64,000 nucleotides of DNA from assembly GCA_965205975.1 (NCBI GenBank), contig OZ242195.1, positions 3,936,001-4,000,000 of the forward strand, given 5' to 3'. This DNA is from Candidatus Latescibacterota bacterium (GTDB lineage: Bacteria; Latescibacterota; UBA2968). How positions within the stretch are numbered: position 1 is the stretch's first letter; the number at the start of each line of letters is the position of its first letter. This document shows, one piece after another, positions 37,459-52,464 of the stretch. The notes beneath the pieces were generated by a model. That model searched no databases and had not been told where the DNA came from. It worked only from the letters and a program-made list of their open reading frames with translations. Position numbers and translations under genes: made by a program.

Positions 37459-38442
37459 ATGGACGCCATTTTTCTCCTCCTCATTGTTGTAGCCGTTATT
37501 CTGGGGCTCTCCCTCTTCTTATACTTCATCCCCGTTGGCCTCTGGATCTCCGCCCTTGCCGCGCGCGTGCGCATCGGCATTATCGAACTCATCGGCATGC
37601 GCCTGCGTCGCGTGCCCCCGCGCATCATCCTCGGCTCGCAAATCAACGCAACCAAAGCGGGTCTCGACATACCCACTGCATTTCTCGAAGCCCACTACCT
37701 CGCCGGGGGTCATGTCGAAAACGTCGTCAACGCCCTCATCGCCGCAGACAAAGCCGGCATTGGACTGACCGGCGAACGCGCCGCCGCCATCGACCTTGCC
37801 GGGCGCGACGTCCTCGAAGCCGTACAGGTCAGCGTCAACCCCAAAGTCATCTCCACCCCCATGGTCACCGCCGTTGCCAAAGACGGCATACAGGTCAAAG
37901 CCACCTCTCGCGTCACGGTTCGCGCCAACATAGAACGCCTCGTTGGTGGCGCAGGTGAAGAAACCATCATGGCCCGCGTGGGCGAAGGCATCGTCACCAC
38001 CATCGGCTCCTCGGAAACCCACAAAGACGTACTCGAAAATCCCGACATGATCTCCAAAACCGTACTCGACAAGGGCCTCGACTCGGGCACCGCCTACGAA
38101 ATTCTCTCCATCGACATCGCCGACGTCGATGTGGGCGACAACATCGGTGCAAAACTCCAGACAGACCAGGCTGAAGCCGACAAAAACATCGCACAGGCAC
38201 GCGCCGAAGAACGCAGAGCAATGGCCGTTGCACTAGAACAAGAAATGGCAGCCCGCGTCGAAGAAATGCGCGCCCGCGTCGTCGAAGCCGAAGCCGAAGT
38301 ACCCCTCGCAATGTCCGACGCATTTCGCAGTGGCAACATGGGCATTATGGACTACTACCGCATGCGCAACATCGAAGCCGACACACAAATGCGCGAAGGC
38401 ATCGCTGGTGAAACCGAAGAAGACGAAGACAACAACCAATAA
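37459..38442 (+). CDS. floA: Flotillin-like protein FloA (YqfA)
   Basis: [44 protein letters not shown]; follows nfeD. Confidence 0.95.
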
Positions 38443-38443
38443 A

Positions 38444-38541
38444 GGGACGGCACAGGGCCTGCCCCGTAATGTCTCTATACGGGGACCGTCCCCTACGATG
38501 ATATTGTGACTTGTACGGGCGACCCTTGTGGTCGCCCGTAC
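38444..38541. repeat. Two REP-like palindromes
   Basis: GGGACGG..[nested CCTGCCCCGTA..TACGGGG]..CCGTCCCCTAC and GTACGGGCGACC-CTTGT-GGTCGCCCGTAC. Confidence 0.75.
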
Positions 38542-39181: not shown

Positions 39182-39268
39182 GCCGAAGTGGTGGAATTGG
39201 TAGACGCGCTGGACTCAAAATCCAGTGGCCGCAAGGCCGTGTGGGTTCGAGTCCCACCTTCGGCACCA
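39182..39268 (+). tRNA. tRNA-Leu (CAA)
   Basis: GCCGAAGTGGTGGAATTGGTAGAC..CTGGA-CTCAAAA-TCCAG, long variable arm, GGTTCGAGTCC..CACCA; TTGACA-17-GATATT upstream. Confidence 0.97.
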
Positions 39269-39280
39269 TAAAAACACAAG

Positions 39281-39313
39281 GGCTTACGTCGGAATGGCGT
39301 AAGCCCATTTTTT
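39281..39313 (+). terminator. Intrinsic terminator after tRNA-Leu
   Basis: GGGCTTACG..CGTAAGCCC plus T-run. Confidence 0.75.
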
Positions 39314-39327
39314 AATTCAAATGCAAC

Positions 39328-39353
39328 CACAGATGAACACAGATGAACACAGA
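39328..39353. repeat. 10-bp tandem repeat
   Basis: CACAGATGAA x2.6; related to the ATCTGCG/CAGATG arrays at 11041 and 52501. Confidence 0.75.
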
Positions 39354-39457
39354 GTAAACGGCTCACAGGTAGCGATCAGCTAACTGCTCGTATCGAGGCT
39401 GTGCCTGTGCTGAAGTGACTGTATTCAGTAATGCCTCTCTTACAGGTCTAAATAGCC

Positions 39458-40435
39458 ATGCCAGACAACAAACAAATCGTCCGCCAACTGGACATCCTCC
39501 GCACACTCCTCGCCCAGACTTATGGTGTGTCTTATCGAAAACTCGCCGACGAATCAGGCGTTGACAAGCGCACCATACAACGGGATCTCGATGATCTCCG
39601 AGAAGTGGGTTTCATCATCGACGAAGAAAAGCGAGAATATGGGAAAAAATTCTTTAAACTCGTCAAAAACAACTTACCACCCCTGAACTTTCCCACCGAC
39701 GAAATCATCGCCTTGACCTTCATTGAAGGAATCATCAGTCCGCTTGAGGACACGCCATACAAAGAAGCATTTCAGAAAACCCTGAACAGAATCAGAACAA
39801 CGCTCCCAGAGCCGATGCAAGCATTTTTGGAAGAAGCAGGCGCGGCTTATTATCCCCATCATCGCGGACAAAAAGCACTGATATCTCCCCAAATATTCGA
39901 AACCGCTCATCGCGCAATCGACGAACGCAAAGTGTGCAACATCACCTATCGCGCCATCACAACCGGAGAAACCAAAACCTATCCCATCACACCTTTTAGA
40001 TTATTGTACTATCACAACGGCTATTATCTACTCTGTCGCAATCCAAATTACGACGACTTACTCACACTCGCGGTAGAACGCATTCAGCACCTTGAAATCA
40101 CATCCCAAACCTTTGAGCCACCCGATGATCTGGACATCGAAAACCGCATCCAACAGGCATTCGGTATCACACTCGAAGACCCCATAGATGTCAAAGTCCG
40201 CTTCTCCGCCTGGCAAGCCCGCTACATCCAACAGCGGATCTGGCACCCCTCAGAAAAAATAGAAGAACTGGACACCGGCGAAATAATCCTCTCCTTTCAA
40301 GCCAGCGGTTCTTACGAAATAAAATCCTGGATACTGAGCCATGGCGCAGATGCAGAAGTCCTCGAACCAGCCTCCCTGCGCCAAGAAATAATCGAGGAAC
40401 TCCAAAAAAATCTGACTTTTTACAAAAAAACCTGA
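39458..40435 (+). CDS. HTH-WYL-WCX transcriptional regulator
   Basis: wHTH LA...GVDKRTIQRDL..L; WYL region ITY..P.RL.Y.NGYYL..LAVERI; WCX SWILSHGADAEVLEPASLR. Confidence 0.92.
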   Translation: MPDNKQIVRQLDILRTLLAQTYGVSYRKLADESGVDKRTIQRDLDDLREVGFIIDEEKREYGKKFFKLVKNNLPPLNFPTDEIIALTFIEGIISPLEDTPYKEAFQKTLNRIRTTLPEPMQAFLEEAGAAYYPHHRGQKALISPQIFETAHRAIDERKVCNITYRAITTGETKTYPITPFRLLYYHNGYYLLCRNPNYDDLLTLAVERIQHLEITSQTFEPPDDLDIENRIQQAFGITLEDPIDVKVRFSAWQARYIQQRIWHPSEKIEELDTGEIILSFQASGSYEIKSWILSHGADAEVLEPASLRQEIIEELQKNLTFYKKT

Positions 40436-40440
40436 CCACC

Positions 40441-40459
40441 TGCGACATACCCTGTCATA
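40441..40459 (+). promoter_or_regulatory. Candidate WYL (DriD-type) operator
   Basis: TGCGAC-ATACCCT-GTCATA imperfect palindrome (GAC-N7-GTC), followed by TATCTT at 40469-40474. Confidence 0.55.
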
Positions 40460-40573
40460 CCTCTTATTTATCTTTGAGACGCATTGCAATGAATGCGTCT
40501 CTTTTTTTTAAAAAATCATAACTCCGACGACAAATCAGATCCCGACACACAACATAAGGAGATAAAATACACC

Positions 40574-43375
40574 ATGAGAAGAGATCACAGACACCACAGA
40601 CATTTAAGGCAGTTTCGATCTGTAAATGAATATAGCCTGTACAGGAATCGCATCTACCTCCTGAACGCGATTCGCGCTGCCCAGCAGAACCTCGCCGTGC
40701 GGGAGAACCTATTGGACTGGTTTAGACGCAATAAGGAAGAACTGGAAAGCATGGACGCCTTCCTCATGCAAGAATATAACAAAACGATAAGTGGACAGAT
40801 AGTAAAGGACCTGACTCAGCGAAAAGTAGCCCATTTCCTCAACTCCTCAGTTAAAACTCTTAAGGAGAAAACCCGAAAAGCACCGACGCTAAGTCCCATC
40901 CAGACAGCGGTCCACCTGGTCATCCAGCGTTTTTCCCTAACGCCAATAGCAGGATCGCTACTCCAACTCGCGTGCTGTTATGAGCATATCAATAACTCTA
41001 TTGCCGCAAGCCTGTGGGATCAAGTTCAGAACGCAGTTATTGGACATCTTGAAACGACCGCGACCTTGTTGGGCTGCTCTCGCGACGAGGTGGAGGACGC
41101 ATTCCGCGAACTGGCCGATGTGGGCATCACTGATCTGGAAGATCTGAACAGGGTACATACCGACCCCGGCAACTACATAAATACCAATTTTTGCCGGATA
41201 TGGAATCCGCCGGTGCGGGACATGGAAGAATTGATGGCGCGTCTGGTTGGTCAGCCATGCGAGGCCACGCTGGACCTGAAAGACTTCGCGCACCTCGATA
41301 ACCGGGACAATGTCGTACGTCTCCTCAGCGCAGCGATACAGGAGCGACGCAAAGAAAAACCTGCAACAGGCGTGAACATCCTGTTATACGGTCGTGCGGG
41401 AACCGGCAAAACCGAATTTGCCAAAACCCTATCCCGCGCCGCTGGCGCGTACCTCTATTCCATCGGCGAACCGGGCCGGAACGATAAGGAAAAGGCCGAT
41501 ACCGAACGCGATTGCCGCACCCGACGCCGCAATCAGATACGCATGGCCCAGGCTCTCCTGCGCTCCGTTCCCAACGCCGCGATCTTGTGCGACGAAGCAG
41601 AAGATGTCCTGGACTCCGGTCACGGCACCCGCCTCCTCAACCACCGCCTGCTGGAAAACACCCCCGTACCGGTCATCTACACAGCCAATCGCCTGGACCA
41701 CCTGGACGAAAGCATGCTGCGGCGTTTCACGTACATCCTCAAATTCACCGTCCACAGCCCCATCCGCCAGACCGCGATTCTGCAGCGAATGCTCAAGGAA
41801 AGTGGTATTGAGGACATTGATACGACCGCGTGTGCGCGACGCCTCGTGGATCAACTCGAATGCCCCCCTGCCATCCTGGCAAAAGCCATTGAAACAACCC
41901 GCCTCATAAACGGCAACGAGAACGACATCTATCACTTCTGCGAACAACTGGAACGCACCATCGCCACCCATTGCACACGCCCACGCCTCGGACCTCCCAT
42001 CAAACCACAACTTCCGTGGGAGGCATTTTCACACATAGGACAAGACGCCGAAGACATCCGGCGCACCCTCGCCGCAGTGCTCGGTAAAAACAGAAAAGGC
42101 GTCAACATTCTCCTGTACGGACCCCCAGGCACCGGCAAAACCGAATTTGCTCGCACCCTCTGCGGCGAAATCGGCGCGCAATTATACGCCATAGGACACG
42201 GCCCAGACGCACGCCCGAGCGCAGACCGCACAAAAACACTGGACTACGCCCTCGAAGCCCTATCAGACGAACCAAACGCCGCGATCCTCTTTGACGAAAT
42301 GGAGGACTTCCGCCAGCAAGAAAAACTCTATCTGAATCGCATCGTCGAAGAAAACCCCGTCCCCATCATCTGGACCTGCAACTCCATTGCCTACTACCGC
42401 GCGTTTGAACCCTTCTTCATCGACCGCATGCTGCACGCCATTGAGTTCCGCCACCTGCCCACCCGGGCGCGGGAACACCTGTACTCCAGCATCCTGCACA
42501 ACGCGCATATTCCAGACACTGAGACCCGTCAACTCGCCCAAGCACTGGCACACAACAACAAAATAACCCCTCGGCAGGTCGCCCTGGCAGCCAAACAGGC
42601 TACTCTCGTCAGTGGAAACACTCAGACCATCCAGCGCAACATAGCCCAAAAGGAAAAACTGCGCCACGGCGTCCGCCCACCTGACATGCGCCCGATAGAG
42701 CAATACGACCCGACCCTCATCCACGCCGACATCAATCTGGAGGTGTTAGCTGAGCAAATGGTCGCACGCGGCACGCGTCGATTCTCGCTTTGCCTGTGCG
42801 GGCCTCCGGGAACGGGCAAAACAGCTTTTGTGCGCTACATCGCCGAACAAATGGGCATAGACATCCTACCCAAACGGGCATCCGACCTCCTGAACAAATA
42901 CGTCGGAGAAAACGAGCAGAACATCGCATCAGCCTTTGCCGAAGCCCTCCAGACCAGCTCATTTCTCGTATTTGACGAAGCGGATTCGCTCCTCATGGAC
43001 CGGCAATCCGCCCAACGCTCATGGGAAGTCAGCCTGGTCAACGAAATGCTCAGCCAGATGGAGCGGCATCCCCTCCCTTATGCCTGCACCACCAACCAGT
43101 GGGACATAATCGACCCGGCAGCCGCACGCCGCTTCGTATTTCGCGCCGAGTTTTACTTCATGGATCAACCGCGCATCAACCGCGCCTTCGAGCTATTCTT
43201 TGACCATAAAGCACCCACCTCTACACTCGCACTGACCAAACTCACCCCCGCAGACTTTGCCAACGTACGGGATCGTGCAGAGATACTGGGCTACCTGAAC
43301 GACCCCGAGCGCATCGCGCACGCTCTCGCCGAAGAATGCCGTCAAAAACCCGGTAGTGCCTCCCTCGGCTTCTGA
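40574..43375 (+). CDS. AAA+ ATPase with three tandem AAA modules
   Basis: Walker A GRAGTGKT / GPPGTGKT / GPPGTGKT; Walker B LCDEAE / LFDEME / VFDEAD; C-terminal LGF; AAGGAG RBS favours ATG 40574 (frame open from 40493). Confidence 0.9.
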   Translation: MRRDHRHHRHLRQFRSVNEYSLYRNRIYLLNAIRAAQQNLAVRENLLDWFRRNKEELESMDAFLMQEYNKTISGQIVKDLTQRKVAHFLNSSVKTLKEKTRKAPTLSPIQTAVHLVIQRFSLTPIAGSLLQLACCYEHINNSIAASLWDQVQNAVIGHLETTATLLGCSRDEVEDAFRELADVGITDLEDLNRVHTDPGNYINTNFCRIWNPPVRDMEELMARLVGQPCEATLDLKDFAHLDNRDNVVRLLSAAIQERRKEKPATGVNILLYGRAGTGKTEFAKTLSRAAGAYLYSIGEPGRNDKEKADTERDCRTRRRNQIRMAQALLRSVPNAAILCDEAEDVLDSGHGTRLLNHRLLENTPVPVIYTANRLDHLDESMLRRFTYILKFTVHSPIRQTAILQRMLKESGIEDIDTTACARRLVDQLECPPAILAKAIETTRLINGNENDIYHFCEQLERTIATHCTRPRLGPPIKPQLPWEAFSHIGQDAEDIRRTLAAVLGKNRKGVNILLYGPPGTGKTEFARTLCGEIGAQLYAIGHGPDARPSADRTKTLDYALEALSDEPNAAILFDEMEDFRQQEKLYLNRIVEENPVPIIWTCNSIAYYRAFEPFFIDRMLHAIEFRHLPTRAREHLYSSILHNAHIPDTETRQLAQALAHNNKITPRQVALAAKQATLVSGNTQTIQRNIAQKEKLRHGVRPPDMRPIEQYDPTLIHADINLEVLAEQMVARGTRRFSLCLCGPPGTGKTAFVRYIAEQMGIDILPKRASDLLNKYVGENEQNIASAFAEALQTSSFLVFDEADSLLMDRQSAQRSWEVSLVNEMLSQMERHPLPYACTTNQWDIIDPAAARRFVFRAEFYFMDQPRINRAFELFFDHKAPTSTLALTKLTPADFANVRDRAEILGYLNDPERIAHALAEECRQKPGSASLGF

Positions 43376-43490
43376 CCCCATGACACGCAAAGGAGAGATA
43401 CAATGTTCAAGAACATCTTCACCTGACCGATCTAAACCCTTTCTCTATTCCCCTTTCAAAGCCACACACCAACAAACAATGGAGGTTTTA

Positions 43491-44042
43491 ATGTCACGCA
43501 TCATAGTCGTATTTTCAATCCTGTCTCTCACCCTTCAGGGCGTTCACGCCCAGGATCAAGCCAAACGTATCGAAGTCTTTCTCGCACTGAGTGGACACAC
43601 CATACTCAACGAAATGGAACCGTCACCTCCGGGCACCGCAGGATATATCGGCGCCCAACTCATCTACAACCTGACACAGACCCAGGCCATTGGCGTGCGC
43701 TATGGCGCCGCAGCTTATGAGATCACCAGCAGTCTGGGCAACACAGAAACCTGGATGGGCGATATATTCGCGACCTACCGATACAGTTGGCGGGCGGGAA
43801 AACCCACGCGCATCTATATTGAAGCCGGAATGGGCGCAAGCGACCCTATCCCGCTTTACGACACAGGCACCAAATTTGCATTTACCGCGGCACTGGGTGT
43901 AAAACGATTTATAGGCGAGCGATTTTCATTGGGACTGGAATCCAGAGGCGTGAGCTTCACGCAAAAAGAGAGCTTGCTGAGCACACAAAATGTGACCGCA
44001 GCCATCAATGAATTTTCACTCGTATTGGGATATCTGTTTTAG
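43491..44042 (+). CDS. Small outer-membrane beta-barrel protein
   Basis: GGAGG RBS, signal peptide, alternating beta-strand pattern, C-terminal LGYLF. Confidence 0.75.
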   Translation: MSRIIVVFSILSLTLQGVHAQDQAKRIEVFLALSGHTILNEMEPSPPGTAGYIGAQLIYNLTQTQAIGVRYGAAAYEITSSLGNTETWMGDIFATYRYSWRAGKPTRIYIEAGMGASDPIPLYDTGTKFAFTAALGVKRFIGERFSLGLESRGVSFTQKESLLSTQNVTAAINEFSLVLGYLF

Positions 44043-44142
44043 CGTTCAAATCGCAGGGGTTGGTGCTGTCGATAAAAAATTACAATACACAGCCAGCTCC
44101 TGCTCGCATTTTATTTATAACGAAATGAATGGGAGTTTTACC

Positions 44143-44517
44143 ATGCGGGTTTTGATGATAATAATGATTTGGATGATAATGGCTTGTGAAGAAGAAAATA
44201 ATAATCCTCTCAAAAGTGATCCTGAATTAGAGGGTAGATTCAGTGTTCTTTCAGTTACCTATTATCCACCTGACCCTCCAACAGAATCTAAAGCCACAGA
44301 TGTAAGAGTATCTTTCGCTAATTGGGGTGAAACCATATATGACCGTAGTATTTATATTCAGGTGGCTTTGATTGACTTCAACAATCAAAGGTATATCAGC
44401 GGATTGACACTGCCAGGGATACAAGGGGGCGGGGCTATAACAAGATTTGAAATAACTATTTGGGGTGTTGAACACCAACAAGTCAACCTATATGAAGTTG
44501 CGTTCACGTACAATTAA
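44143..44517 (+). CDS. Putative lipoprotein
   Basis: MRVLMIIMIWMIMA-C lipobox-like N-terminus; AT-rich. Confidence 0.6.
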   Translation: MRVLMIIMIWMIMACEEENNNPLKSDPELEGRFSVLSVTYYPPDPPTESKATDVRVSFANWGETIYDRSIYIQVALIDFNNQRYISGLTLPGIQGGGAITRFEITIWGVEHQQVNLYEVAFTYN

Positions 44518-44684
44518 AAACCAATCCTCTCAGGAGACGCAAGCACAAAGACACGCAACAGGCTTATCGAGACTCTGGTCTGCGTTTAAGAAAATGCTCA
44601 CAAAATCTCCTGGTCAGGCTTGATCTTCTGAGGGTAAAAATTATATTGTATAGGAACCGTTTGTTTGAGTAGGGATTACAAAAA

Positions 44685-45752
44685 ATGAGGGCACCGATGT
44701 TATTCAAACTGATTCGCAAGAAGCAACAGACCGCATTTCAGCCGTTTATGAGACGGGAGGCTTCAGATTTGAAACTCAAAGAGAAGGATTTGGAGAACTG
44801 GATCGCGGAGAACCCAGAGTTGTTGTTTGGAACCGAACAGATATTGGTGATCAGTCAATCCGTCAGCGGTAAGCGCATGGCCGATATATTGGCTTTAGAC
44901 GCTGAGAGGCGTTTGGTCATTGTCGAGATAAAACGGGACTGGGCCGATAGAGAGACGGTTGGTCAATTGCTTGAGTATGCGGCAAACATGGCCGGAAGCC
45001 GCTATAAGGATCTGGAAAAACTGCACGAGTCCCACTGGAAACAGCACCACGGGAATAATCAATATGTTTCCTTGCTCAAACGGTTTCAAGATCTGACCGA
45101 TGACGAAGCTACAGAAGATGACATTCCGAAAGGTCAGCGGATTTGTATTGTAGCCCCTAGATCTGATGAGGGTCTGTCTCGAATTGTAAAATGGCTAAAA
45201 GAGTATGGTGTGCCGATTAACTTCGTACCTTTCACGCTCTATACAGATGACAATAATGTGGATATTCTATTAGAGATGAAGCCGATCCCTATGATTCAGG
45301 TGGAACAAAGAAATGTTGCAGCCGAGGAGAGAGATCGGTTTTTTAATACGAACGAAACTAACGCATCGGGCGCATATCAGAATATGTTTGATCACGGCGT
45401 AATTGCCATCTATGGTTACGCGAACGGACCATCGAATCTGGAAGGAAGCACCACAGATCAGCGAGTATTTGCCTACGTTAATAAAAAGGGCATCCTGGCG
45501 ATGGGACGTATCGTTGACGGTCAAGTTGTTCCTGGCAACATAGTCTTTGGAAAGCCTAACGAGTACCATGTAAGGGTCGAGTGGGAGACAATTGTACCTG
45601 ATCACATGGGTGTCAAGTTGCAGGAAGTTGAACAGCAGTTCGGCTACCAACTCCCTGTCCGCAGTGTCTTTTGCCAAATGTATTGTCCCCCTAATGTCAC
45701 AGACTGGATCGCGGGAGAGCTTCTACACAGGGCTAGGGGAAACCCGCCCTGA
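44685..45752 (+). CDS. NucS-like PD-(D/E)xK endonuclease with C-terminal EVE/PUA-like domain
   Basis: EKDLENWI..NP, ADILALD..LVIVEIKR..GQLLEYA; C-terminal DQRVFAYV..KGI.A.G..V.W. Confidence 0.75.
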   Translation: MRAPMLFKLIRKKQQTAFQPFMRREASDLKLKEKDLENWIAENPELLFGTEQILVISQSVSGKRMADILALDAERRLVIVEIKRDWADRETVGQLLEYAANMAGSRYKDLEKLHESHWKQHHGNNQYVSLLKRFQDLTDDEATEDDIPKGQRICIVAPRSDEGLSRIVKWLKEYGVPINFVPFTLYTDDNNVDILLEMKPIPMIQVEQRNVAAEERDRFFNTNETNASGAYQNMFDHGVIAIYGYANGPSNLEGSTTDQRVFAYVNKKGILAMGRIVDGQVVPGNIVFGKPNEYHVRVEWETIVPDHMGVKLQEVEQQFGYQLPVRSVFCQMYCPPNVTDWIAGELLHRARGNPP

Positions 45753-45819
45753 AGTCTTGAACAGCGAAATTTGCGTAGTAAGGACAATAAATTTGTTTGT
45801 GCTCTGAAGGAGTATCTCA

Positions 45820-46083
45820 ATGGCTGATTCGATCCTCACTGATGTGCCGGAATCTTGTCCGACAATAGTCAGGCAGCCTGAAAACGTACAAAGAGAACTC
45901 CGGGAAGCATTTGAAATTGCTGTTGTAAAAGCTCAAAAACAGGGCATTCCAGAAGAAGAAATTTTTCAATTTTTGGAAGACGTGATTGACAACCGAGCAG
46001 CAGATCAAGCGTTAAAAGAAATGGAACGAACAGGAAAAAAATCCATTCCATGGGAAAAAGTGAAAGGAGAGGCAGGGTTGTAG
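45820..46083 (+). CDS. Orphan antitoxin-like protein
   Basis: AAGGAG RBS; C-terminal LED.ID...A..AL.E......IPWEKVK.E.GL typical of RelE/ParE-cognate antitoxins; no toxin follows. Confidence 0.6.
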   Translation: MADSILTDVPESCPTIVRQPENVQRELREAFEIAVVKAQKQGIPEEEIFQFLEDVIDNRAADQALKEMERTGKKSIPWEKVKGEAGL

Positions 46084-46240
46084 CTTACGCAATCGACTTC
46101 TGTGAAATTATTTTCTGGTATTATAATTTCTGGTTTGTTCATAAGGATTTTTTTCGTATATTTGTCAAGTTTATGTTGACATTGCTTCAAAATCATCTTG
46201 TTTGAGTAGTTCTGTTTTTCATTGTAACCGGAGGAGAGTT

Positions 46241-46429
46241 ATGTCCCAAAGTCAGCCCCAAAATGAACCCGTTACACAACAGACACCTCAAACCATATTT
46301 CTTCGCACTCCCAAACCCGAAGATCTTGAGTTGACCCCTGAAGAAAAACAGGCCCTTAAGAATTTTTTGGATTGGGAAAAAAGGTCTGCAAAAACGCATT
46401 GGATCCTGGGGCAACCGGTGGGAAGATGA
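46241..46429 (+). CDS. 62-aa peptide of unknown function
   Basis: Strong GGAGGAG RBS; MSQSQPQNEP...FLDWEKRSAKTHWILGQPVGR. Confidence 0.7.
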   Translation: MSQSQPQNEPVTQQTPQTIFLRTPKPEDLELTPEEKQALKNFLDWEKRSAKTHWILGQPVGR

Positions 46430-46456
46430 GTCATTATTAACTTATAGCCAAAAATC

Positions 46457-46486
46457 AAAAGCCTCGTGTGTTTACGAGGCTTTTTT
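46457..46486 (+). terminator. Hairpin/terminator between the peptide gene and the peptidase-like gene
   Basis: AAAAGCCTCGT-GTGTTT-ACGAGGCTTTTTT. Confidence 0.75.
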
Positions 46487-47931
46487 GATGTGTAAAAATA
46501 AGGATCCGCCTATGAAAGACGCTTTCGCAAAAGAACAAAAACTACTGGAATCATGCCAAGTACCCTTCTCGTTTTATCAACTTGTGGAAGATATCTGGCA
46601 TCCGAAAAGCAATATCGGATCAGACCCTATGAACCGTCTATGTACACTAATGAGAAAGATGAAGGTCAAATCGTTTATCAGAGAGGAATTGGAATTAAAC
46701 GAAGAATTGTTAGAAGAACAGGATATGGCCACTGAGCGATGTAAACAAAAGGTAAGCCTCACTGCGACACGCCTGACATTCTTTCGGTCATTGCCTTCTC
46801 CCCTAAAATGGAACGATCCAGATAAGTTACTGGACGACCATCTCCTGGGTTACGCTGTGATAGCAACGCTTGAACTACCGGGTGACAAATATACAACGTA
46901 CCTATTGGAATCCGTGGTCCGGCCTCCCTCCATCTGGGTGCGCGATACAGAAGACCGCATTTCCATTGAACCCATCACGAATTACTACGTACATAACAGA
47001 AGAAATTTTGAGACACACATCGGCACAAAAGAAAAATCGAGAACCTTTACTCTGCCGGGCAGTTTTTTTGCCCAACAAAATAACCTTACCCATGTCTGTG
47101 CTCATGCCGCCTTGCGAATGGCCATAAATAGCTCAGATACGGTTACCTCTGAAAAGCTCACAAATCGAAAGATCAATGAGATTCTGGGAATTGACTTCAG
47201 CAGCCCTGAAAAATGCGTAGGCCATATAGACAGTGATCCCCCAGGAACCAAAAGAGGCTTGGGTCAACAAGAGTTAGAAGACGTTGTTAGCCAATTGGGT
47301 GGGAGAACAATATCAGCAGATTTTGTACAAGACACTTCCGTTGAATACGACCAATTTATCTATCCATTTGTCGAGTCTGCCTGTCCCGTGATATTGGGAA
47401 TAGAAGGTCGGGATTCTCGTAATGAAATAATTAACCATGTGGTTTCCGTTTTAGGACATACACTCAATTCCGACCGGTGGGAACCTGAAGCCCGAGTCGG
47501 ATATAGTGGATTGCAAGCGCAACCTTATATCCCAGCTACTGGATGGACTGGACACTATATCATCAATGATGATAATTTTGGTATGTACTTGACTTTGCCA
47601 TCTGATATGTTGAGAAATTTCCTTGTTCCGTCAAAAAATCCGAACTTACACGCCAGAATAGCAGTTGCCATAGTACCTTATGGTGTGCAGTTCTCGGGCC
47701 TTTGGGCAGAAGGGATAGCGGTAAGGATTACCCAATTTCTTATCAAAATCACAAAAATACAACATCCCCCTATTTGGCTTAAAAGATTAGCTCAACAATC
47801 CGGCAAAATCGTAAGTCGAACGCTGCTTCAAACAAAAGAATCTGAGGTGCGCCCCATTATTTGACCCGGTATAAAGGCTAATTGACATTGGGTGTCAGCG
47901 TGGTATTTTCTCACCAACAGGAGGAGATACC

Positions 47932-48216
47932 ATGGGTAAGAAAACCAAGAAGTCCTACTCGGCAAAACTCAAGTTCCAGATCGTGTTAGAGGCATTGACC
48001 TCGGAGCAAGAGGATGCAGAAATCGCTCGCGCTTACGGTGTGCATCCGGTGAGTCTATCAAACTGGAAACGTCAGTTTATAGACAGTGGTGCAGAGATTT
48101 TCTCTGGTAATGATACCGTCAAGACGTATGAAGCGCGTGTGTCTGATCTGGAGCGCCTGTTAGGTCAGAAAGAAGTCGAACTGGCCTTGCTCAAAAATTT
48201 TTTAGGCAACCGTTGA
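47932..48216 (+). CDS. IS3 transposase OrfA (HTH)
   Basis: YSAKLKFQIVLE..IARAYGVHP..L.NWK; slippery AAAAATTTTTTA near the end. Confidence 0.9.
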   Translation: MGKKTKKSYSAKLKFQIVLEALTSEQEDAEIARAYGVHPVSLSNWKRQFIDSGAEIFSGNDTVKTYEARVSDLERLLGQKEVELALLKNFLGNR

Positions 48217-49121
48217 GCGTGTCAGACAAAGTAGAACTGGTCGAAAAGCATAAGGACAGGTATGGTCTGAATATGTGCTGCCGTGCCTTAGGCTTGTCAA
48301 AAGGGACGCTTGCCTATCGTCGCGGTCGGGCCTCTTGTTCTCAGGCAGATAAACAGATAAAGGCTGAGATCGTCACCACAATCCGGCATCACCCCGATTA
48401 TGGGTATCGTCGCATCAAGGAAGACCTGATAGCGCGTGCTGGCATCGTGGTCAATCATAAGCGGTTACGTAAGATATTGTCAACGTATGAGTTAGACTTA
48501 CCTCGTCATCTGCCAAAACGCGGCAAGAATCCGGTATTGAAGCTGATAAGCGAGGTGGGACAAGACGCCAATTTAGTTCAGAACCGCACCGTTGATCCCT
48601 TGCGAGTCTTTTGCACCGACTTTACAGAATTGCTCTATTGCCAAGGACAGAAAAAAGCGTGGTTAATGGCGTTTTTGGACATCCACACCAGGTGGATCGC
48701 AGGCTTTGGCGTGGGCGCACATCGCAACCGTGACCTGGCGATTTATTGTTTGGATCAGTTACAAAACAACCTGAGTTGTTTGGACAGGAGACTGTCTGAC
48801 ATCCTCATCCATCACGACCGCGATTCGGTTTATACCTCATACGACTGGTTACATCGTGTGTTGATTGAAGAACGTGCAGGGATTTCTTTTGCGATGAATG
48901 GGGCAAAAGATAATCCGTGGATAGAGTCCTTTTGGGGACGTTTTAAGACGGAAAACAAGACTTTGATTATGCACGCAGAATCTTTGACAGAACTTATCTG
49001 TGTGATTGGGCAACAAATGACGTATTACAATCAAGATCGAAGGCATTCTGCCTTGAGCTACCAGACGCCACAAGAAGTGGTGCAGGCCATTCTTATGAGA
49101 AATATCACGGCTGACCCTTAG
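48213..49121 (+). CDS. IS3 transposase OrfB (DDE)
   Basis: YGYRRI, TDFTE, HHDRDSVY, DNPWIESFWGRFKTE, YYNQDRRHSAL; -1 frame relative to orfA. Confidence 0.92.
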   Translation: MSVSDKVELVEKHKDRYGLNMCCRALGLSKGTLAYRRGRASCSQADKQIKAEIVTTIRHHPDYGYRRIKEDLIARAGIVVNHKRLRKILSTYELDLPRHLPKRGKNPVLKLISEVGQDANLVQNRTVDPLRVFCTDFTELLYCQGQKKAWLMAFLDIHTRWIAGFGVGAHRNRDLAIYCLDQLQNNLSCLDRRLSDILIHHDRDSVYTSYDWLHRVLIEERAGISFAMNGAKDNPWIESFWGRFKTENKTLIMHAESLTELICVIGQQMTYYNQDRRHSALSYQTPQEVVQAILMRNITADP

Positions 49122-49547
49122 TGTAAATTAGCCTGATAACTGGTTCAAATTTTGGGTTACAGATCCATCCTATAGACAATATATTGATAGTCTGGTTCAA
49201 GATGGCCATATAACATTAACTCCAGAAATTGAACAGAGATTCGAGAATATGCCGGAACATATCTGGGTATCTGAAATCACTCTGCCTCACCTTTACACTG
49301 GCAATAAACACAAACTCGGGGATGTAATCATTCGCGCAAATGCCACTGACGAGGAACACAACGCAGTGAAAAGTTTTGAATTAGCCTGGTTTCCAGGCTT
49401 CATATATTTTGGATCGGATCATCAGATTCTTCCCTGGGATGTGCGTACTCATGTTCCACTTATAAGAGAAGAAGAAACAGTTCCATTACTCGAATGGTAA
49501 TATTACTTTTGCTCTAAAATTGATACCCATCCCAAACGCCTGACAAA

Positions 49548-49727
49548 TCACTCGTTTTTTCCATAGACGACACGTAACTGTGTCATATCGCAGTCATCAA
49601 GCGTGAGGGTATCGAGATCGGCTTTTATCGCCTGATCAATCTCCTCATCTGTCACGCGATCCAAATAATCAAAGTCTGTCCGCGACTTCTCGTTTTTAGA
49701 CTTTCGACCAGAAAAGCTCTCGTTCAT
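49548..49727 (-). pseudogene. Truncated BrnA-like antitoxin fragment
   Basis: SRTDFDYLD..TDEEID.AI..D resembles BrnA N-termini; C-terminal DNA-binding part absent. Confidence 0.5.
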
Positions 49728-49873
49728 CTTTGACCTCGCTATCCTTTGCTCAGTGTGACTGTGCAATATACCAAAAAAATCTTGATTGCTGTGGGCATAT
49801 AGGGTATTATTTCCGCGATAGATTTTATTTAAAATGTATTCGCGCATTCGTCAGATAAGGTGGTATTGATCCT

Positions 49874-50131
49874 ATGGAAACGATCCGATTGTCCAATGAG
49901 ATTTTGGAAAAACTCGGCAAACTATGTCAGGCTGGCGGGTATGAAACCATTGCGCAAGGTTTGGAACATGCCATTGACCATCACCTTTTAGAACTACGCC
50001 GTCAAAGAGCAGAAAAAAGAGGTAAAAAAATAAGAAAAAAATTACAAGAAAAAAATTTGACAGAGGATGAAATTCTCAAAGACTTTGAAATATTTCGAGA
50101 GAATTTGAGGCAAGGGAATGCCGCGACTTGA
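49874..50131 (+). CDS. Putative antitoxin (RHH/CopG-like)
   Basis: Short ORF overlapping the downstream PIN gene. Confidence 0.6.
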   Translation: METIRLSNEILEKLGKLCQAGGYETIAQGLEHAIDHHLLELRRQRAEKRGKKIRKKLQEKNLTEDEILKDFEIFRENLRQGNAAT

Positions 50132-50504
50132 GCTTGCCGTTGATGCAAACCCATTGATTTCTGCACTCCTGGGTGGGCAAGCATTAAAATTGCTATACAG
50201 TCCATTATTTTTATTTATTACAACAGAACGCACAACCTGGGAAGTCAAAAAATATATACCAGAAATAGCAGAGCGTCTTGACATCTCAGAAATTGAAATG
50301 CTGGAGACATTTGAAGACTTTCCATTAGTTGCTTATCAATCAGGTCTGTATAGCTCTGCTATTAGTCGAGCAAAAAATAAAATTAGTCTTCGCGATCCAA
50401 AAGATGTAGATATTCTCGCTCTCGTATATCATCTCGGGACGCCATTGTGGACTCATGATCTCGATCTTATAAACATTGAAGACATTCAAACTGTTACCAC
50501 GTAA
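50118..50504 (+). CDS. PIN-domain (VapC-like) toxin, possibly shortened by a nonsense codon
   Basis: VDANPLISAL, E, RDPKDVDILAL, LWTHD.D acidic motifs; frame continues TT*DLLTIIATNE*. Confidence 0.8.
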   Translation: MPRLELAVDANPLISALLGGQALKLLYSPLFLFITTERTTWEVKKYIPEIAERLDISEIEMLETFEDFPLVAYQSGLYSSAISRAKNKISLRDPKDVDILALVYHLGTPLWTHDLDLINIEDIQTVTT

Positions 50505-50588
50505 GATTTACTAACCATCATAGCCACAAATGAATAGTCCGCATATGTCTCCGCACAAAGGAGGCGACATCACAACATGTCACCTCTT

Positions 50589-50669
50589 TTTTCTTTGCCT
50601 TGACAGCGGGAACAAACTGTATTAGGATGCATCCCGATATTTACAGGAGAGACAGAATGTCTGACCATT
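50589..50669 (+). repeat. 81-bp direct repeat, copy A (promoter, RBS and first codons of the flavoprotein gene)
   Basis: 79/81 identical to 52609-52689. Confidence 0.92.
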
Positions 50670-51029
50670 TCATTACCCATTGGACTTAATTTTTTGCAAG
50701 GGCAAATTATCTTGCTACGTAGCCCAATTCTGGGCAGAAAATGCGATTTTTTTCACTTCTCAAAAAGGGTCTGTCATGAGTAATATGCAAGAAGAAATCA
50801 ATCAGTATTACCGGAGTGCTGATATTGCGCCCTTGGGGGGATATGGACATGATAAATATAAAAAGAAGTATCAAGAGAAAGAATCGTTGGAAGAGCGAAA
50901 AGAGATAATCCGCGAGATGTACATCGCGAGGTACGACAAGTTCACTTGTAAAAACAAGAAAGGCTGTCGGTGTGCCTGCTATAACCGAGCAAAAAACAAT
51001 AACCAAGCAGAAAACTTTCTCTTTTCCTC

Positions 51030-51240
51030 TCATTGCGCCCGGCGCAACTCCTTCAGGGTCATGTAGGTAGCCTGAAGGTGTGCTTTTTCGGCCTTAATCC
51101 TCGCCTGTCTCTCAGGAGGCAGAGACGCTATTTTTTCTTTTAGAGACGTTCCCATTAGATGTTTCCTTTCAATCTCCTAAAATGGTCATCGAAACGGTCC
51201 TCGGCTTGAGCAATAAGCCGCCTGTAGAAGCGGTTTTCTC
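51030..51240 (-). pseudogene. Remnant of HigB/HigA-like (RelE/XRE) TA junction
   Basis: Toxin C-terminus ENRFYRRLIAQAEDRFDDH..* overlaps (TAATG) antitoxin N-terminus MGTSLKEKIASLPPERQARI..MTLKELRRAQ* (51155-51030). Confidence 0.7.
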
Positions 51241-51293
51241 TTTGCGCCTCCTTACGCAATGTCCTGTATCTCGTCAGGCTTATGGAAATCACG

Positions 51294-52274
51294 TCACGCA
51301 TCTAACACGCGCTGAAATGCCTCGAGATTGGGCACCTGTATCGCCGCACGGAGCACCTGCTTGAGACGGTGCAAATCGTCAATGGCCGCAATGCGAGTGG
51401 ATAGGGGGTGCGCTTCGCTCAGGTCAAATCGAATCTCCAACACATCAAGGATAGCTTCGATCGTGCTTCTTCTTTCGCCTTGCTCAATGCCTTGCTCAAT
51501 GCCTTGCTCAATGCCTTGCTCAATGCCTTGCTCAATGCCTTGCTCAATGCCCTGCTCAAAACCTTCCTCTCTGGCTTCCTCTCTGCTTTGTTGGGTAAGG
51601 GATTGAAAAAGTGATGATTCGCGCAAGATGTCCATGATGCCCTCCTTGAAAATAATACCAGAAATCGTTTCAGAATCATATACCAACTCGCTCAACGCCA
51701 CCATGCCTGCCAGATAATCCGCCCTATATGACCGATCTATAGAGCGCGTCCGAGCCGTGTGAATACACTGATGCAACCACGCATCCGAGGCCATCCCTTC
51801 TGGCGGCTTCATCAATGGCGTGAAAGGGATCAGACCCGATTGCCCCGATTCAAGGACGCGCTCGCCTTCTATCTCAATCAGCCTGATCACGCGATACCGA
51901 ATCGTGATTTCGTAGTCGAGATGCGCCTGGACATAGTACCCGGTATCGTGTTGCCCTGCATTGGGACGCAAGTAGATCACATTGGAATAAATCGGCAGGC
52001 CGTATTGCCGAATCGCATGTCCAATATAGCCCGCCATGCGACGCTCCATAGGCGGATTGGTGCTGTCAGTCGTTTGAAACTCGTTGTGGACCAATACCTC
52101 CTCGTCACCCATACGCACGCGAATCAGGCTATCGGTTTGGCGTGCTTCAACAGTGTATTGCTCTGTGTCAATAACTGCAAGAACTTCAACGTCCTCGCGT
52201 CCGAGGGTAAAGCCAGCAAAGTCATTGGGGTATTTCTGAATCAGATGTTTGGAAATCGTATCAAATTCAGCCAT
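51294..52274 (-). CDS. Rpn-family PD-(D/E)xK protein with GIEQ repeats
   Basis: FD.ISK.LI..YP, RQTDSLI..LVHNEFQT..M.RRMAGY, C-terminal LEIRF..I..I.D...L; GAGG RBS before ATG 52274. Confidence 0.85.
   Translation of the reverse strand: MAEFDTISKHLIQKYPNDFAGFTLGREDVEVLAVIDTEQYTVEARQTDSLIRVRMGDEEVLVHNEFQTTDSTNPPMERRMAGYIGHAIRQYGLPIYSNVIYLRPNAGQHDTGYYVQAHLDYEITIRYRVIRLIEIEGERVLESGQSGLIPFTPLMKPPEGMASDAWLHQCIHTARTRSIDRSYRADYLAGMVALSELVYDSETISGIIFKEGIMDILRESSLFQSLTQQSREEAREEGFEQGIEQGIEQGIEQGIEQGIEQGIEQGERRSTIEAILDVLEIRFDLSEAHPLSTRIAAIDDLHRLKQVLRAAIQVPNLEAFQRVLDA
51477..51560. repeat. 12-bp coding tandem repeat
   Basis: GCCTTGCTCAAT x6 plus one variant, encoding GIEQ on the minus strand. Confidence 0.95.
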
Positions 52275-52464
52275 GTGAAATGCCTCGCGTCTGGTGGAGT
52301 GAGTGCGTGGGACACGCGCAACACTCAGACACAAAGCAAATATCAGGCCAAAAATTCAATTATCACAGAATTGAGCGATGTTGCATTGGCATGGCAAGAC
52401 GCCTGAACACTGCATTGTGCTTTAAATATGCTGTATTGCACACTTGTTCACAACCTGAATTTAA

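Follow-up and report, generated by a model that had tools for sequence, protein, structure and literature searches.

DriD of Caulobacter crescentus and DdaA of Moraxellaceae are homodimeric activators, and the available text of the papers on them describes DNA-damage regulons (PMC9186387, PMC12392091, PMC13010146). As far as the available text goes, the DriD site, ATACGAC(X)7GTCGTAT, takes the place of a -35 element at a fixed distance from the -10, and binding there recruits polymerase and activates (PMC13004042); DdaA binds a similar box (PMC12392091, PMC13010146). Here we describe a locus in which a regulator of the DriD/DdaA class and an operator of this type precede a large AAA+ ATPase gene. 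The locus lies in a window of 64,000 nucleotides (nt), the whole stretch of DNA analysed, at positions 3,936,001 to 4,000,000 of contig OZ242195.1 (assembly GCA_965205975.1) from a Candidatus Latescibacterota bacterium. A sequence-only reading had proposed a WYL regulator, a palindrome and a three-module ATPase at a tRNA-Leu gene, and we found every one of these elements in place. To our knowledge, classical AAA+ unfoldases have one or two stacked rings. The closest solved relatives of the ATPase by sequence and fold are Cdc48/p97, VAT, Rix7/NVL and AFG2. It shares with these type II AAA+ unfoldases the Walker A and B motifs, the sensor-1 asparagine, the arginine fingers and an aromatic pore loop in the last module, and differs in having three modules rather than two and in D1-type modules that lack this loop. 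The p97 N domain is a double-psi barrel, whereas the ATPase has a helical and winged-helix N-terminus instead, and its score on the CDC48 model TIGR01243 (93.9 bits against a cut-off of 802.65) places it outside that family. We conclude that the regulator-ATPase pair is a real, conserved, accessory module that varies the plan of a large, unnamed two-module family. The features of the locus, all on the + strand and in window coordinates, are as follows.

39182-39268: tRNA-Leu(CAA) gene, left border of a variable hotspot; context, outside the system.
39280-39306: terminator of the tRNA-Leu(CAA) gene itself, downstream of the tRNA.
39458-40435: winged helix-turn-helix-WYL-WCX transcription factor of the DriD/DdaA class, 325 residues (P0002), with Pfam HTH_11, WYL and WCX.
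40424-40430: A-tract upstream of the operator, within the 3' end of the WYL gene; possibly an UP-like element.
40441-40459: DriD-type operator TGCGAC-N7-GTCATA, at the -35 position.
40469-40474: predicted -10 hexamer TATCTT, 9 nt after the operator, called from TAnnnT enrichment at this spacer.
About 40481: predicted start site, placed from spacing only.
40476-40509: intrinsic-terminator-like hairpin (10 base pairs) with T8, overlapping the predicted start site; called from folding and covariation.
40574-43375: three-module classical AAA+ ATPase, 933 residues (P0001).
40619-41269: N-terminal region of the ATPase, residues 16-232, a helical bundle and a winged-helix-like domain.
41270-41998: module 1, D1-type, Walker A GRAGTGKT at 41390, without an aromatic pore loop.
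41999-42688: module 2, D1-type duplicate, Walker A at 42119, DR rather than RR at the arginine finger, without an aromatic pore loop.
42689-43372: module 3, D2-type, Walker A at 42800, pore loop K-Y-V-G, x-G-F tail at the end.

The ATPase matched PF00004 in three stretches, with a Walker B DE in all three, and ends in LGF. Conservation was scored over 113 homologues longer than 870 residues, with seven shorter matches left out. For modules 1, 2 and 3, respectively, the Walker A lysine was retained in 113, 111 and 113 of them, the Walker B glutamate in 112, 112 and 113, and the sensor-1 asparagine in 113, 113 and 112. The arginine fingers read R-R in modules 1 and 3 and D-R in module 2, where R618 was present in 113 of 113; the P-loop arginine of module 1 (GRAGTGKT) was kept in 112. 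The pore loop of module 3, an aromatic-hydrophobic-Gly motif absent from the D1-type modules 1 and 2, had W, Y or F in 111 of the 113, and G932 and F933 were invariant (113/113). The ratio of nonsynonymous to synonymous substitution rates (dN/dS) against five relatives was 0.14-0.26 per module and 0.30-0.41 in the N-terminal region. Motif conservation and the dN/dS of the modules together rule out neutral decay of the extra module. Of 120 homologues listed, 113 had three Walker A motifs, including some as distant as about 42% identity; the other seven were fragments, internal deletions and one motif variant. In addition, run X4, a different sample from the same study, contains a contig of 2645 nt that is identical to the window over 40432-43076. 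An assembly artefact is thus ruled out, and the three complete modules of the sequence-only reading stand, in independent reads as well as in homologues. An AAGGAG lies 12 nt upstream of the ATPase ATG at 40574; an alternative open reading frame of 960 residues is unlikely, as its start falls inside the hairpin.

We then considered where the third module came from. Modules 1 and 2 share 35% identity with each other and 34-35% with the D1 of two-module proteins; between D1-type and D2-type modules the figure is only 17%. In a quick tree of 165 modules, which left out loci L007, L032, L048, L049 and L054 and carried a long-branch warning, the first, second and third modules, 23 of each, formed three clusters of their own (SH-like approximate likelihood ratio test, SH-aLRT, 99, 99 and 86). 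The first two modules grouped with D1 and the third with D2 of the two-module proteins (SH-aLRT 100 for each grouping). The earlier suggestion that modules 1 and 2 are duplicates is supported, in that both are D1-type. The 20 identical nt offered for it did not hold up: they are peculiar to this gene, the longest run at the same spot being only 6-17 nt in 21 other three-module genes. A recent duplication is ruled out, with modules only 35% identical and the 20 nt a by-product of Walker A conservation. The three-module form likely arose once, through an old duplication of D1 in the two-module family, as judged from sequence relationships. Reversion also occurs. Run X5 contains a two-module revertant, in frame and with its joint in Walker A (41398-42128, depth 2.6), and P0041 is another exact in-frame loss of one module.

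The direct parent is an unnamed WHD-AAA-AAA family (winged-helix domain, WHD) found by WYL genes, which shares the N-terminus, D1, D2, x-G-F tail, operator and WYL link, and from which the ATPase differs by the extra D1-type module and a narrow spread. Three-module genes made up 21 of 63 loci, with record titles of Latescibacterota, Gemmatimonadota and Acidobacteriota; the closest titled records are Candidatus Latescibacterota genomes at 83-87% identity. Among the best 150 representatives (clusters at 50% identity), five clusters were full-length three-module and 139 had two Walker A motifs. Members of the parent family are annotated as "ATP-binding protein", "AAA family ATPase" or SpoVK/Ycf46/Vps4 family, and 3726 proteins reached E<=1e-30 among 8000 scored. 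The earlier reading called the module undescribed. We found no published description of the three-module ATPase or its two-module parent, though supplementary family lists (PMC12392091, PMC9503650, PMC4012209, PMC13069673) could include the ATPase; the accessible parts of PMC4012209, PMC13069673, PMC11090510 and PMC9503650 section 31 deal with other systems. What that claim missed is the much larger two-module WYL-ATPase family, which is also present in this genome. A separate multi-module architecture was seen in P0247, P0249, P0250, P0267, P0272 and P0283, which have Sel1 repeats and two intact D2-type modules. The four of these sequences that were read have a degenerate third module before the intact pair, and four of the six carry a C-terminal trypsin-like peptidase, a D2-type motor fused to a protease.

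The regulator shares domain order and length with DriD and DdaA. Its HTH_11, WYL and WCX domains each exceed the Pfam cut-off, and DriD is its best PDB match (E 1.5e-10), aligned over the full length. The recognition-helix residues R38 and R42 were retained in 43 and 44, respectively, of 44 neighbouring WYL proteins. Further likenesses are the CGAC-N7-GTC box, the fixed distance to the -10, the lack of a -35 consensus and a regulator gene without a box of its own. The targets here lie near the regulator and comprise the ATPase, nucleases and a helicase instead of recA or didA, and a terminator covers the start site, where none was seen in the accessible parts of the papers on those systems. 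A third, distant WYL gene of this genome (G000 C1:34521-35516) adjoins genes that by eye resemble a type I CRISPR-Cas operon.

TGCGAC-N7-GTCATA occurs once in the 5.56-Mb genome. Across 85 loci, TAnnnT followed 41 of 142 operator-like sites at spacer 9 and zero to three at every other spacer from 3 to 19. Under a relaxed pattern of box, 9 nt and TAnnnT, a match precedes 15 of the 21 three-module genes and 23 of the 49 two-module genes, and at spacers 5-8 and 10-14 the same pattern was found upstream of zero to two ATPase genes. The box and its 9-nt spacing are conserved across phyla, and the DriD promoter DNAs printed in the portion of PMC13004042 available to us also have, by our own count, 9 nt from the box to an nAnnnT hexamer. 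The A-tract is invariant in 10 aligned loci and also accompanies cassette copies that have no WYL gene in front of them. Taken together, we conclude that the palindrome is a DriD-type operator with the layout of DriD-activated promoters, with binding predicted, as the DriD-like operator of the sequence-only reading had it. Eight three-module genes of an acidobacterial clade without a nearby WYL gene retain a degenerate box and -10, and a WYL gene was found elsewhere in four of five searched genomes of three-module genes without one nearby. Perfect sites of box, 9 nt and -10 number only three in the genome, one here and two at a second WYL/two-module locus. A genome-wide regulon is unsupported: the 165 operator-like sites of the genome include 8 with spacer 9 and just as many (8) with spacer 14.

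The hairpin at 40476-40509 starts two bases after the -10 and has a folding energy of -16.3 kcal/mol (z -5.3). Across the alignment 90 of 90 cells were paired, with double changes in four of ten pairs, figures that come from nine distinct aligned sequences and are inflated by relatedness. By folding, an RNA starting at about 40481 would keep only 5 base pairs (-5.3 kcal/mol), set back from the U-tract. Because of this folding behavior, the terminator likely insulates the ATPase gene from read-through of the WYL gene, so that only the activated transcript would get to the ATPase.

The linkage of WYL and ATPase genes proposed from the sequence holds in relatives: 8 of 21 three-module loci and 31 of 41 two-module loci have a WYL gene no more than 1.3 kb away, on either side or in divergent orientation. 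The two-module form also occurs on plasmids of cultured Proteobacteria (17 matches), with a WYL annotated nearby in 8 of 10 regions opened. Phage carriage amounted to one unannotated record at E<=1e-20, covering half of the query. Neighbor profiling covered 86 of 159 neighbor clusters and the plasmid regions opened; the other neighbors vary and include DUF2779, PD-(D/E)XK, ADP-ribosylglycohydrolase (ARG), NUDIX, NYN, macro, Sir2, HEPN and RtcB. At L037:3620-4633 and L056:4433-5389, a gene for a protein that combines HTH_3 with an IrrE/CapP-like M78 peptidase is divergent from the two-module ATPase, in the position held elsewhere by the WYL gene. In two genus relatives, the cassette of A-tract, box, -10 and hairpin is copied upstream of an extra full-length DnaB (L081:388-1857, L082:3237-4702). 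Copies also precede genes that start like that of the DUF2779 protein in the genus relatives L002, L089 and L090. A DUF2779 protein had no match in this genome, but the control was also unmatched everywhere and absence is not established.

The second WYL locus of this genome (L064:3180-8356, which is G000 C1:763179-768355, minus strand) has a WYL paralogue 47% identical to the regulator, followed by a box, a gene of 142 residues, a PD-(D/E)XK gene (PADLOC PDC-S26-like), another box and the two-module ATPase P0122. A three-module paralogue (66%) on the minus strand (L065, G000 C1:4135453-4138338) overlaps a downstream TPR gene, as in L004 and L005. Other three-module genes are followed by a 1156-residue ankyrin protein (L013:9030-12500) or a 619-residue RNase-H-like protein (L016-L018; L016:9002-10861). 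The sequence-only statement that no nuclease partner is evident needs one correction. A NucS-like nuclease gene with a PDC-S11 match lies at 44685-45752, 1.3 kb 3' of the ATPase and without an operator of its own, and in relatives nucleases are often found among the co-regulated cargo.

Of 19 other genus genomes, 10 carry the ATPase and nine, several of them near-complete, lack it; some family member occurs in 33 of 151 genomes of the phylum. The WYL gene is found in 14 of 20 genus genomes, broken in one. G067 and G013 have the WYL gene without the ATPase, G073 has remnants, and G033 and G070 have neither at the site; the content downstream of tRNA-Leu varies among genus relatives. Runs X2 and X4 contain strains that join 40509 to 43279, deleting the ATPase. 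RNA run X22 holds almost no ATPase sequence, has a contig in which 40031 is joined to 44025, and is uninformative on expression. We conclude that the ATPase is a patchy, repeatedly deleted accessory gene.

The rest of the window adds context. An outer-membrane beta-barrel gene directly 3' of the ATPase (43356-44042) is kept in several genus relatives. The stretch at 44050-52400 is low in G+C and variable, with toxin-antitoxin-like pairs, the NucS-like gene, genes for a RelB-like antitoxin and a 459-residue protein, an Rpn-like gene, a transposase-like pair (47932-49121) and a probable PIN-type pair (49874-50504) that scored in none of the libraries used. Short intergenic sequences at 38440-38540 and 39315-39360 have many dispersed copies in genus genomes and are probably repeats like repetitive extragenic palindromes (REP) or miniature inverted-repeat transposable elements (MITE). 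An integrated element at tRNA-Leu was rejected: no second copy of the tRNA 3' end, and so no att duplication, lies within the window, and no integrase was among the downstream open reading frames scanned with profile libraries.

Our best reading, which we hold at about even confidence from sequence comparison, is alarm-induced protein remodelling by a WYL-activated, stacked three-tier ring in a defence-type regulon. The DriD-class WYL protein would sense a nucleic-acid alarm, most likely single-stranded DNA (ssDNA), bind the conserved box at the -35 position and start a transcript inside a terminator that otherwise likely closes the ATPase gene to read-through. The three-module ATPase, one member of a small local regulon, would assemble into a ring of three tiers and use it to pull apart proteins, probably those bound to foreign or damaged DNA. 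To judge from the pore loops, module 3 alone may thread, with modules 1 and 2 serving as an ATP-dependent scaffold or entry rings, and the winged helix may contact substrate or DNA. The AlphaFold2 model of the ATPase had a predicted local distance difference test score (pLDDT) of 80.7 and a predicted template modelling score (pTM) of 0.57, with a pLDDT of 92.9 for the N-terminal 230 residues. The N-terminal model gave generic winged-helix matches only (Z 6.5-7.0; best Z 7.8, generic) and nothing in Foldseek at E<=0.001, and PF22977 (WHD), at E<=0.1, matched 21 of the 51 N-termini of the family but missed that of P0001. An x-G-F near the C-terminus occurs in 130 of 150 representatives of the wider family. 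It resembles the ClpP-docking motif, [LIV]-G-[FL], of ClpX/ClpA-type ATPases; the genome has two clear ClpP genes, and ClpP or another partner may be a docking site for the tail.

Several observations weigh against this reading. No conserved substrate or partner gene was found among the neighbors, whose cargo varies, and no ClpP-like gene was present in 75 loci. The three-module paralogue of this genome (C1:4138338-4135453) and two orthologues have neither a WYL gene nor a box. The operator/-10 pattern was upstream of the ATPase in none of nine plasmid loci scored. The loci counted are related, so that the tallies overstate independence. Foldseek matches to two-ring unfoldases had a root-mean-square deviation of about 16 Å and are uninformative on module arrangement. 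Finally, of five alignable ssDNA contacts of DriD, the regulator keeps Y168 and Y192 and has L, L and A at R204, W206 and R207, which the available text of PMC9186387 names as contacts. About half or more of the 44 neighboring WYL proteins retain R and W at the R204 and W206 positions, and DdaA likewise carries an R-to-A change, in the available text of PMC12392091; for the R176/R178 loop of DriD the alignment crosses a gap. Since R204, W206 and R207 are replaced, the ligand of the regulator may differ from plain ssDNA.

A possible alternative, though one we consider doubtful, keeps the same switch and has the ATPase serve host DNA repair or replication restart, for example by clearing stalled replisome or repair proteins. 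The DNA-damage regulons of DriD and DdaA (PMC9186387, PMC12392091, PMC13010146, in their available text) suit this, as do the extra DnaB driven by the cassette in two genus relatives, the ATPase gene's host-like G+C fraction of 0.56, compared with 0.43 for the island 3' of the locus, and its unchanged position after the tRNA in several genus genomes. However, LexA-family genes are present in the genome, no perfect box and -10 site exists beyond the two WYL loci, and the ATPase is missing from 9 of 19 genus genomes. The cargo, moreover, consists mostly of nucleases and ADP-ribose enzymes, typical of conflict loci. Between a defence-island role and pure repair, we lean only slightly toward defence. 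Iyer et al. 2022 predict ARG-centred systems regulated by WYL or Nudix proteins, and section 31 of PMC9503650, in the text available, names no AAA+ ATPase and predicts repression. Two-module loci resemble these in combining WYL with ADP-ribosylglycohydrolase, phosphatases and nucleases; the present locus differs in having no ARG gene.

The fullest form of the remodelling proposal is a first three-tier classical AAA+ unfoldase: a stacked hexamer of 18 sites in which two D1 rings without pore loops form an ATP-gated antechamber over one threading ring, with x-G-F tails in host ClpP, an ssDNA alarm and a promoter inside its own insulating terminator, which would destroy the DNA-bound proteins of phages or plasmids. 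Taken whole, we regard it as unlikely. It is also quite unlikely that the ATPase is a toxic or abortive-infection effector like IetA, silenced by the terminator and freed by the alarm. IetA/IteA of the IetAS anti-phage system has a related single AAA module compared with three here, and the best score on IetA profiles was that of module 3. The likely tight insulation of the gene, together with its repeated loss, would suit a cost of carrying it. The IteA score, however, was 97.9 bits against a cut-off of 510, no S8 peptidase (IetS) was found among the neighbors scanned, and the promoter-less paralogue persists.

The sequence-only reading had left a triple ring and a pseudo-hexamer side by side. 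Based on the family and the linker spacing, we propose a hexamer with stacked rings; stacking is favored because the spacing between modules 1 and 2 (median 245 residues) equals the D1-D2 spacing of the parent (244 residues in 50 two-module proteins), and because one module is naturally lost exactly and in frame. That two subunits instead place six modules in one plane, as in dynein or midasin, is very unlikely: three times two is six and dynein entries were among the Foldseek rows (TM-scores 0.15-0.17), but the added unit retains the D1-to-D2 spacing, D1-type and D2-type modules are dissimilar, and the losses in P0041 and run X5 restore the two-module plan.

WYL repressors of defence operons are known, and the sequence-only reading had named BrxR and CapW as WYL proteins that control such operons. 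That the regulator represses this promoter until a signal releases it is highly improbable: the box does cover the -35 position, and repression is also proposed for ARG-centred operons (PMC9503650 section 31, in part), but there is no -35 consensus, and box and spacing match DriD, where binding recruits polymerase (PMC13004042, in part). Given the operator/-10 geometry, the regulator looks like an activator of the DriD/DdaA type by analogy.

The locus would add an accessory arm to the DriD/DdaA-type response, in which a portable cassette of operator, -10 and terminator is associated with ATPases, nucleases and a helicase in many phyla. Three intact modules, with natural two-module parents and revertants, provide a test of ring coupling and of the role of rings without pore loops. 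The two-module form on plasmids of cultured Proteobacteria makes the family open to experiment now.

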